Shown here: one piece after another, positions 36,024-39,000 of the stretch
Layout: the number at the start of each line of letters is the position of its first letter
Position numbering within the stretch: position 1 is the first letter of the stretch
Source: Callorhinchus milii
Lineage: Eukaryota
Assembly (NCBI RefSeq): GCF_018977255.1
Contig: NW_024704750.1
Coordinates: 20,894,001 to 20,958,000, forward strand
Length of the DNA stretch: 64,000 bases
Reading direction: 5' to 3'
The notes under the pieces: generated by a model
Told to the model about the DNA's origin: nothing
Database searches by the model: none
What the model saw: only the letters and a program-made list of their open reading frames with translations
Program-made: the position numbers and the translations under genes

Positions 36024-39000
36024 ATGGCTGAGCTCTCGCTGGAGGATATCCAGCAACGTGCCAACCAGGTGACAGATGAGGTGAGGCTGAGAGTCGGGGA
36101 GCCATGCGGGGCATCCTGGGTGGTGGATGCGGGGCTGTGTCCCATGTGTCTGTGTAGGGGCATGTGTGTTTGTACGGGTGCACTGCGCACTGTGTGGCTG
36201 CGCGCGGGCACTGGGGGGGGGGGGAGCTGCGCGCGGGCACTGGGGGGGGAGCTGCGCGCGGGCACCGGGGGGGGAGCTGCGTGCGGGCACGGGGGGGGGA
36301 GCTGCGCGCGGGCACGGGGGGGAGCTGCGCATAGGCACTGGGGGGGAGTTGCGCATAGGCACTGGGGTGGGTGGGAGCTGCGCGTGGGCACGGGGGGGAG
36401 GAGCTGCGCGTGGGCACGGGGGGGAGGAGCTGTGCGTGGCCACGGGTGGGAGGAGCTGTGCGTGGCCACGGGTGGGAGGAGCTGTGCGTGGCCACGGGTG
36501 GGAGAAGCTGTGCATGGGCACCGGGGGGGGGAGCTGCGAGCGGGCACTGGGGGGAGTTGTGCGTGGGCACTGTGTGGGGGGAGCTGCATGCGGGCACTGC
36601 GGGCACATAGGTATGGAGCTTGTGTGTGTTGCTGACTCTGTTCCTTTTTCTCAGTCTCTGGAGAGCACGCGTCGGATGCTGCAGATGGCGGAGGAGGTAA
36701 GCTGTTCCCATACTGCCCAACAACAACAACTTACAGTTATATAGTTCCCCTCACGCAGGGCAGCGCCCCTCACTCGGGGCAGCGCCCCTCACGCGGGGCA
36801 GCGCCCCTCACGCGGGGCAGCGCCCCTCACGCGGGGCAGCGCCCCTCACGCAGGGAAACCCTCTCATACAGAACCGATTGCTGGGGGGGAGGGTGGGCAG
36901 GGGGAGTTGCCTGTAACACCCCGGTTCAGGCTCTGAGCCACTGACACACTTTCCTGTAACTTGTTGCAGAGCAAAGATGCTGGTGGCAAGACGCTAGTGA
37001 TGTTGGATGAACAGGGAGGTGAGTACTAAGATCAGCCACTCAACACAGAGCGAGGCTGAAATTATTAACACACGGAGCGAGACCATTAACGCACAGAGTG
37101 GGACTGAGATCAGTTGGGTTGGGAGAGAAAGGTCAGCCTGGCTTCCACCTCCTGATGACTGGCTGGAGCCACTCTTGCCCTACGCTGACAGCTGTGTGCG
37201 GGTGGACACGCAGGATAGGGTGTGAAGAGCCCCCCATCTCTGTTTGTTTTGGGGGGGAATGGTGGTGAGAGCAGGGTTGTTGAAATGAACGTGCTGAGGG
37301 CCTGACACACTGTCTGCTTGTCAGAGAAACTGGAACGTATCGATGAGGGGCTCGACCGCATCAACCAGGACATGAAGGAGGCGGAGAAAAACCTGACTGA
37401 CCTGACCAAATGCTGCGGCCTGTGTGTGTGTCCCTGCAGCAAGTGAGTGGGGAGAAACTAACTAACCCAGTGAGGGACACTGGTAACTAACTAGCCAACT
37501 GACCCAACAAGGGGCCCTGGTAACCAACTAACCCAGTGAGGGGCCCTGGTAACCAACTATCCCAGTGAGGGGCCCTGGTAACCAACTATCCCAGTGAGGG
37601 GCCCTGGTAATCAACTATCCCAATGAGGGGCCCTGGTAACCAACTAACCCAATGAGGGGCCCTGGTAACCAACTAACCCAGTGAGGGGCCCTGGTAACCA
37701 ACTAACCCAGTGAGGGGCCCTGGTAACCAACTAACCCAGTGAGGGGCCCTGGTAACCAACTAACCCAGTGAGGGGCCCTGGTAACCAACTAACCCAGTGA
37801 GGGGCCCTGGTAACCAACTAACCCAGTGAGGGGCCCTGGTAACCAACTAACTAACTAACCTAGTGAGGGGCCCTGGTAACCAACTAACTAACTAACCTAG
37901 TGAGGGGCCCTGGTAACCAACTAACCCAGTGAGGGGCCCTGGTAACCAACTAACTAACTAACCTAGTGAGGGGCCCTGGTAACTGACTAACCCAGTGAGG
38001 GGCCCTGGTAACTGACTAACCCAGTGAGGGGCCCTGGTAACTATCTGATCCGGGCTGGTGGGGGGGATTGGTAACTGGCCCACGCTCACTGTGAGGGTGA
38101 GATGCTGTGGTTGAGCTGTGCCCCTCTCTGCAGGGGCTCTGTCTCAGAACTTCCTCCCATTCAACTTTTTCTCTCTCTCTCTCTCTTCTGTCTTTTTTTG
38201 TGCTTCATTAACTGGAGGTTTGAGCTAACCCAAGCGCAGACTCTGGGAGGAGTGAACGGACCCTGTATTTACTCAGTAGGTGCTGCTGATGGAACTGCAT
38301 GTATGCATGAGTTCTCCCGCACCCCCCCTCCCCCACACACACACACACGCACTGCATGCAAAATGAACTAACTTAGTGAAGGTCTCAGACCAAGTTCCAG
38401 TGTGTCAACCTGGCGAGATGTCAGCCTGGCGCAGTGGATCAGATGTTAAAGTGAGGGCTACCTGTTCAGGTGGACTTTAAAGATCTGTCAGCGCTATTGG
38501 AAAGGAGAAGGGAGTTCTCTCCTGGTGTCCTGGCTGACGATCCCCCCAAATAAAATTGGTCAGTCACTCCATGGCTGTTTGTGGGACACTGCTGCGTGCA
38601 ATTGAGTTGCCGTGTTGCCTACAACTACACAGTCACTCCATTTCGTAGTAAATCCTGTGAAGCTCTTTGAGACATCCTTCAGATGTGATGACAATAATAA
38701 TCTTTGCATTTAATCATCACATCGTTGATACGTCTTAATTGCTTCCCAGAATATATTGTAAAGTGAATTGACTGTATTTTGGCGAAGGGACTGAGGAGGG
38801 GACGGGGGGGTGCGAAGGGATAGGGTGATGGGGAGGGGTGCGAGGGGACCGAGGGGAGGGGTGGGAAAGGGAATAGAGGAATGTAAAGTAACGCAGGGAA
38901 TGGAGTAGAGAGTGCACAACAAGGGACAGAGTGTTAAACTTGGAGCAGTGAGGAGATCGTGAGATGGGGAACCACTTGCCCACACAGGACATTGAGTGTC

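Follow-up and report, generated by a model that had tools for sequence, protein, structure and literature searches.

A candidate 84-nt cassette in elephant-shark SNAP23 with likeness to the mammalian striated-muscle microexon

The mammalian Snap23 microexon and the elephant-shark gene

Exon 6 of mouse and human Snap23 is a 33-nt striated-muscle microexon that follows the cysteine cluster and codes for FSVGDCFFETR (PMC12064062). According to the sections of that paper used here, the mouse exon has a weak GC donor, two QKI and two RBFOX2 motifs occur within the 300 nt that follow it, with none upstream, QKI bound upstream promotes skipping, and the length limit for microexons is 51 nt. The same sections report conservation of the Snap23 microexon for mammals and give its function as unknown. 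No report of this microexon outside mammals was found in our literature search. A preprint that includes elephant-shark muscle splicing (bioRxiv 10.64898/2026.09.05.749416) leaves SNAP23 unnamed in its main text.

The window, i.e. the whole 64,000-nt stretch of Callorhinchus milii DNA analysed here, contains SNAP23. Its seven coding exons, spliced in silico, gave exactly the 207-aa C. milii protein P0003, to which the cysteine exon is 100% identical. In a tree of 33 proteins, the gene clustered with SNAP23 from sharks, fish, amphibians, reptiles, birds and mammals at 100/99, and SNAP25-like paralogues fell apart from this clade. These paralogues, distinct from SNAP23, were retained in sharks, ray-finned fish, lungfish, amphibians, turtles and monotremes. 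The segment of interest and its surroundings are as follows.

36024..40590, + strand: SNAP23 coding span, seven exons, spliced product identical to P0003
36024-36080, 36655-36696, 36970-37018, 37325-37442, 39639-39785, 40279-40423, 40525-40590, + strand: SNAP23 coding exons
37325..37442, + strand: cysteine-cluster exon, its end joined to 39639 in contigs of runs X2 and X3
38114..38133, + strand: 3' splice-site-like acceptor, 12/15 pyrimidines, CAG (used acceptors of the gene, 8-14/15)
38134..38217, + strand: 84-nt candidate cassette, phase 2/2, open in the window allele, strongest pseudo-exon of the intron
38150..38200, + strand: 51-nt tract, 90% pyrimidine, with (CT)8 at 38171-38186, apparently length-variable
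38215..38223, + strand: weak GT donor GAG/GTTTGA, 5/9 consensus matches, from a consensus comparison with the donors of the gene
39639..39785, + strand: constitutive exon 3' of the cysteine exon

The preliminary description of this DNA had placed an 84-nt frame-preserving exon candidate just past the cysteine exon, and the sequence bore out its coordinates, phase, open frame and splice-site-like ends. Segment 38134-38217 is flanked by the cysteine exon (37325-37442) and by the exon starting at 39639, shows no stop in frame, and spans 84 nt from the acceptor CAG ending at 38133 to the GT donor. With 5/9 matches, this donor is on a par with the one used at 39785, and the remaining four in use reach 7-8. 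The candidate was the sole pseudo-exon with an acceptor of this strength in the 2.2-kb intron (1/1; 1/7 at looser limits). That it keeps the frame is a one-in-three event and carries no weight beyond chance. The folding of RNA from 38080-38400 did not stand out (z 0.93). A strong donor-like AGG/GTGAGA was also noted at 38094-38102, 37 nt 5' of the candidate's first base; by eye, no open exon was evident upstream of this donor (38097).

Like mouse exon 6, the candidate occurs in the orthologous gene at the junction past the cysteine cluster, with a weak donor, an adjacent TGCATG pair and downstream QKI motifs. The frame is preserved in the window allele and in run X2, and would be broken by a version two bases longer (run X4, see below). 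It differs from the mouse exon in being 84 nt long instead of 33, thus exceeding the 51-nt microexon limit of PMC12064062, and in its donor, which is GT instead of GC (both being weak). There are 12 ACTAA motifs in its upstream 300 nt against none in mouse, and it contains a CT microsatellite that the mouse exon lacks. Furthermore, the candidate is known here from sequence and contigs, whereas the mouse exon is striated-muscle-specific. On length, donor type and upstream motifs, it was not filed as a member of the microexon family.

The preliminary description had called this segment a homologue of the muscle microexon. Position, peptide ends (compared with mouse), a TGCATG cluster and a flank resembling the mouse QKI#2 site argue for such kinship, and a weak opossum match, the absence of an insert from 32 chondrichthyan entries and a fish intron without the motif module argue against it. 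On the former four features, the candidate is probably akin to the mammalian exon. The reading that we favour goes further and takes it for a decaying, mostly skipped homologue of that exon, with a probability of about 0.5.

Peptide likeness and intronic motifs

The mouse peptide given in the preliminary description is indeed printed in PMC12064062. It was compared, using BLOSUM62 and allowing one internal deletion, with in-frame pseudo-exons on both window strands. The ends of the candidate peptide scored 20, a value reached only by the candidate itself among 711 pseudo-exons and by 3/3,672 at the loosest limits. With 7 or 45 such pseudo-exons in the intron, the family-wise chance is ~0.01-0.04, bearing in mind that the statistical nulls were drawn from the 64-kb window and that the kinship tests were picked after the sequence had been inspected. 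Two composition-preserving shuffles matched the mouse peptide as well in 69 and 83 of 20,000 cases (p ~0.004). The match to the insert of opossum (P0310) was weak (14/711 pseudo-exons; 1,166 and 1,382/20,000 shuffles, p ~0.06), and mouse and opossum taken jointly gave 258 and 326/20,000 (p ~0.015), in each case after taking out 17 residues. No likeness was observed to frog inserts (scores -7 and -12).

The best deletion for the mouse match was 38150-38200, coinciding with the pyrimidine tract and leaving GSVSECFINW, of which four of ten residues are identical to mouse and three of ten are shared by opossum. This subtraction of 51 nt from 84, giving 33 nt and GSVSECFINW, had been put forward in the preliminary description. 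It holds in the sequence, yet partly by construction, as the bounds of the maximal pyrimidine segment depend on the penalty (35-73 nt, with 50 nt at one of four settings). An alternative register, made of the last 33 nt alone, retains 3/5 of the residues that mouse and opossum have in common and is the better fit to opossum (9 vs 6). The two registers fit about equally: the tract may have entered the old exon in its middle (GSVSE/CFINW), or only the last 33 nt may represent that exon, in which case the tract would be its former polypyrimidine tract, the AG having been lost. A C-F pair near the donor is present in both. No 33-nt exon with native splice sites was found inside 38134-38217, where no AG pairs with this donor at 33 nt. 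Exons opening at GAG 38217 were rejected, having 34, 47, 58 or 62 nt and all being out of frame.

The motifs surrounding the candidate are distributed as follows.

37460..38041, + strand: 29-bp tandem array of ~18 copies with 23 ACTAAC, upstream of the candidate, possibly a silencer
38225..38229, + strand: CTAAC half-site just 3' of the donor, its flank unlike mouse QKI#1 (8,073/20,000 as good)
38296..38309, + strand: tandem TGCATG pair (RBFOX motifs), 79 and 87 nt past the donor; mouse likewise has an adjacent pair
38353..38358, + strand: third TGCATG
38367..38392, + strand: ACTAAC (QKI motif) with a 3' flank like mouse QKI#2 (35/20,000 random positions)

The expected arrangement of RBFOX and QKI sites was encountered downstream, with TGCATG at 38296, 38304 and 38353 and ACTAAC at 38367 confirmed; the preliminary description had however overlooked the 12 upstream ACTAA motifs. 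The 300 nt downstream of the candidate hold three TGCATG and one ACTAA. At least three TGCATG appeared in only 1/5,000 shuffles of these 300 nt, and three within 58 nt formed the sole such cluster on either window strand. When 632 tiles were ranked by their joint likeness to the three morpholino targets of mouse, the 200 nt past the donor came first under each of three scorings, the motif cores being included in this comparison. When the cores were removed, a single one of eight flank comparisons stood out, namely ACTAA 38367 against mouse QKI#2, which did so at two offsets and was scored as one. This flank was matched by 35/20,000 random positions (~0.015 after eight tests) and was the best of the 72 ACTAA sites outside the tandem array. 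The flanks of the RBFOX pair and of CTAAC 38225 looked mouse-like by eye; with the cores removed, both were at chance and were discarded.

Other motifs and repeats were recorded in this region. The 29-bp array opens just past the donor of the cysteine exon and its units carry branch-point- or QKI-like ACTAAC as well as donor-like GTAAC and GTGAG. A further TGCATG pair (39228 and 39258) occurs in the same intron ~400 nt before the next exon, and another (36511 and 36585) in the intron that follows the start exon, within a G-rich repeat. Past the motif cluster, ~38405-38824 is a very high-copy interspersed repeat, with a summed contig depth of up to ~950,000 in X4.

The intron of fish snap23.1 (L058) displayed a single TGCATG in ~1.5 kb and no comparable module; it was the sole vertebrate SNAP23 intron among the loci listed (32 of 79, L048-L079) in a metagenome scan. 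Since this fish intron is without the module, homology requires several losses. Pieces of the window aligned locally to L058, L064 and L071 gave chance-like results, as judged by eye.

If the favoured reading of a decaying homologue holds, the segment would descend from the muscle microexon, having kept an acceptor and a weak donor as well as the RBFOX and QKI motifs on its 3' side, and would likely owe its length of 84 nt to expansion by a CT microsatellite. RBFOX and QKI occupying these motifs in muscle would aid the weak donor, as they do in mouse, and the CU-rich tract with its PTBP-type motifs (8 CTCT), together with the upstream ACTAAC array, would counter inclusion. A silencing role is proposed for this array because upstream QKI favours skipping. 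Yet three RBFOX motifs and the QKI flank have been retained, which counts against decay and suggests selection that lasted until recently or is still acting.

Splicing in assembled contigs and variation of the CT tract

Contigs of four runs (X1-X4, out of 13) were placed on 38045-39830; X1-X3 were guessed to be RNA and bear no tissue labels. Of the 13 runs, 8 contain the stretch and three were guessed to be RNA; the lack of a recorded RNA run with the stretch was given no weight as evidence, and neither were intron parts without cover in X2 and X3. In X2 and X3, one contig each (depths 528 and 1,194) passed directly from the 3' end of the cysteine exon to 39639. In X1, a contig of depth 263 lay on the exon at 39639 and had no piece on the candidate. 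The candidate itself was covered by shallow contigs continuing into the intron, at depths of 6.8 in X1 (38060-38561) and 15.7 in X2 (38065-38313). Shallow contigs running into the intron were likewise recorded in X3 (15.8 for 38050-38158 and 6.0 for 38214-38429), and the bin depths over the candidate were wholly accounted for by these shallow contigs. The junction 38217->39639 was absent among the joints listed (15 of 142), on the understanding that contigs drop minor isoforms and that records cut at the repeat 38159-38202 leave anchors of 25 and 15 nt, such that a short inclusion contig could escape. In these runs of tissue-unlabelled contigs, the 84-nt form is not the main one.

The internal CT repeat appears to vary in length. 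The X2 contig carries the 84-nt length, with 249 letters over 249 bases. The X4 contig displayed 271 letters over 269 bases (38045-38313), i.e. two more. These were assigned to the CT tract (masked repeat 38159-38202), as no gap row was listed in the span and rows were dropped only at repeats; according to the aligner, gap rows at repeats are mostly false, and X4 was weighed for the length difference between its well-anchored flanks. The X1 contig had 506 letters over 502 bases (38060-38561), and its four extra letters may belong to the CT tract, to the CA tract at 38314-38361, or to both. Word shares of the runs (0.54-0.85) are too coarse for reading alleles. The frame is thus kept in the window and in X2, whereas the two bases of X4, if correctly placed, would break it. 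Changing the tract by +2, +4 or -2 nt introduces a stop in each case. In the +2 version, this stop is met as the next exon begins, 291 nt upstream of the last junction, and the inclusion product is a predicted NMD target.

These observations fit the favoured reading of a decaying homologue. Slippage of (CT)n would generate in-frame (84-nt) and frame-breaking (86-nt) versions under relaxed selection on the frame, and rare inclusion would yield either a hydrophobic insert in the linker or a premature stop with predicted NMD.

They may also be read as those of an ordinary intron, in which a CT microsatellite happens to lie between a chance AG and GT, the mouse likeness being coincidental or independently gained. 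The skip joints and the unspliced cover are in line with this, as are the 0/32 chondrichthyan entries with an insert (see below), the fish intron L058 without the module, the weak opossum match and the 7 to 45 pseudo-exons among which to choose. Such an interpretation is nevertheless unlikely, given that the window's only TGCATG triplet, the best peptide and the best match to the QKI#2 flank would have to coincide in the right intron.

Another alternative keeps the RBFOX/QKI module alive and assigns it to an unproductive or a different exon. In the first case, inclusion of frameshifted versions in muscle would lower SNAP23 via NMD. The position of the stop in the +2 version speaks for it, as does the scarcity of NMD targets in RNA assemblies; against it, the window and X2 have the in-frame length, which holds no NMD trigger. 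In the second case, the tract would serve as polypyrimidine tract for a downstream acceptor, e.g. that of 38240-38251 (12 nt) or 38235-38279 (45 nt). These short exons would both preserve the frame and have AG and GT sites, and the donor at 38279 is located 16 nt before the first TGCATG. Yet the first AG past the tract is the rare GAG, and none of the joints listed falls at these places. Taken together, either form of this alternative appears very unlikely. A possible 3-nt exon was also noticed at 38277-38279 (CAG-TAG-GT), 16 nt before the first TGCATG, which would add one residue.

The hydrophobic insert and other inserts at the same junction

The preliminary description had seen in the insert a possible membrane anchor and had called for a prediction of transmembrane propensity. 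The hydropathy is suited to a membrane span, since the best 19-residue Kyte-Doolittle mean is 2.09 and the run is long enough, with an insertion energy estimated at roughly -3 kcal/mol; over half of the open shuffles are nevertheless suitable too. When the tract was shuffled, 18,598/20,000 versions stayed open, of which 10,397 reached 1.6 and 3,152 reached 2.09. Openness and hydrophobicity are therefore no sign of selection, because shuffled tracts commonly share both. Any pyrimidine tract in this frame reads hydrophobic, which follows from base composition.

The insert would follow residue 89 of 207, leaving 118 residues, including the second SNARE motif, on its C-terminal side, where basic residues also occur. 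As the two SNARE motifs of this Qbc-SNARE have to face the cytosol, a linker crossing the membrane once would disable it by leaving them on opposite sides. In transmembrane Qb-SNAREs of the Vti1 and membrin type, the anchor is C-terminal. The candidate resembles these in that a SNARE motif is followed by a hydrophobic run of ~19 residues, but differs from them by the second SNARE motif in the 118 residues C-terminal of the run and by the basic residues on that side. The spliced contigs skip the segment, X4 has two additional bases, shuffles are as hydrophobic and one pass would separate the SNARE motifs; the anchor idea is not supported, and the candidate likely gives SNAP23 no working membrane anchor. 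An insert that was in fact translated would more likely rest in the membrane surface, or supply extra palmitoylation sites. In SNAP-25, the acylated linker works through contacts with lipids and has to be continuous with the second motif (PMC6422494).

A functional muscle-specific exon of 84 nt would be included in heart and skeletal muscle under RBFOX and QKI and would add 28 residues with a hydrophobic run. It would thereby place two extra cysteines beside the palmitoylated cluster, the run most likely lying in the membrane surface or looping back rather than crossing. The good acceptor, the GT donor, the open frame and the downstream motifs are compatible with such an exon, as are the hydropathy value of 2.09, the 84-nt length carried by X2, the precedent of the SNAP-25 linker (PMC6422494) and the inserts annotated at this junction in opossum and Hyla. 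Still, skip joints dominate X2 and X3, X4 is two bases longer, a mean of 1.6 is common among tract shuffles (10,397/18,598), and the C. milii entries clustering with P0003 are without the segment. The cytosolic position required of both SNARE motifs, the second lying within the 118 following residues, adds to this, and we regard a functional exon as quite unlikely. An extended version, in which a Snap23 microexon and its RBFOX/QKI switch date from the jawed-vertebrate ancestor and the elephant-shark microsatellite made of it a live muscle exon (a hydrophobic membrane tether in the linker, independent of palmitoylation and with two extra cysteines, switched off by frameshift alleles), is speculative and highly doubtful.

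The favoured reading, a decaying homologue, has implications of its own. A recognisable chimaera counterpart with matching intronic motifs would, if true, date the switch back to the jawed-vertebrate ancestor, and would illustrate microexon decay or remodelling by a microsatellite. Should the long form be included in muscle, it would amount to a natural experiment on whether contact between linker and membrane is tuned by the microexon. On present evidence, the locus is an evolutionary footnote, not a new SNARE type.

Among chondrichthyans (sharks, rays and chimaeras), none of 32 SNAP23 entries from 23 named species displayed an insert at this junction, nor did the C. milii entries in the cluster of P0003. 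Such absence from annotation is weak evidence, as the known microexon was shown by 1/15 marsupial entries and by no placental entry fetched (entries were taken from 120 of 1,842 matches listed, with 15 of the 143 members of the main placental cluster). Inserts at this junction were encountered in 6/226 further proteins, i.e. one from opossum, four from Hyla and one from Ascaphus. The opossum protein (P0310) has an annotated 11-aa insert at the same SNAP23 junction. The frog inserts share the position and show no likeness to the candidate, and this junction may be prone to gaining inserts independently. In Hyla sarda (P0375-P0378), the insert is a basic and aromatic 9-aa peptide, FFRFKRRRR, which could bind acidic lipids. 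Inserts of 14 residues in a hypothetical protein of Ascaphus (P0199) and of 11 residues in a SNAP25-like paralogue of Amia (P0041) occur at the same junction, both in automatic or partial models.
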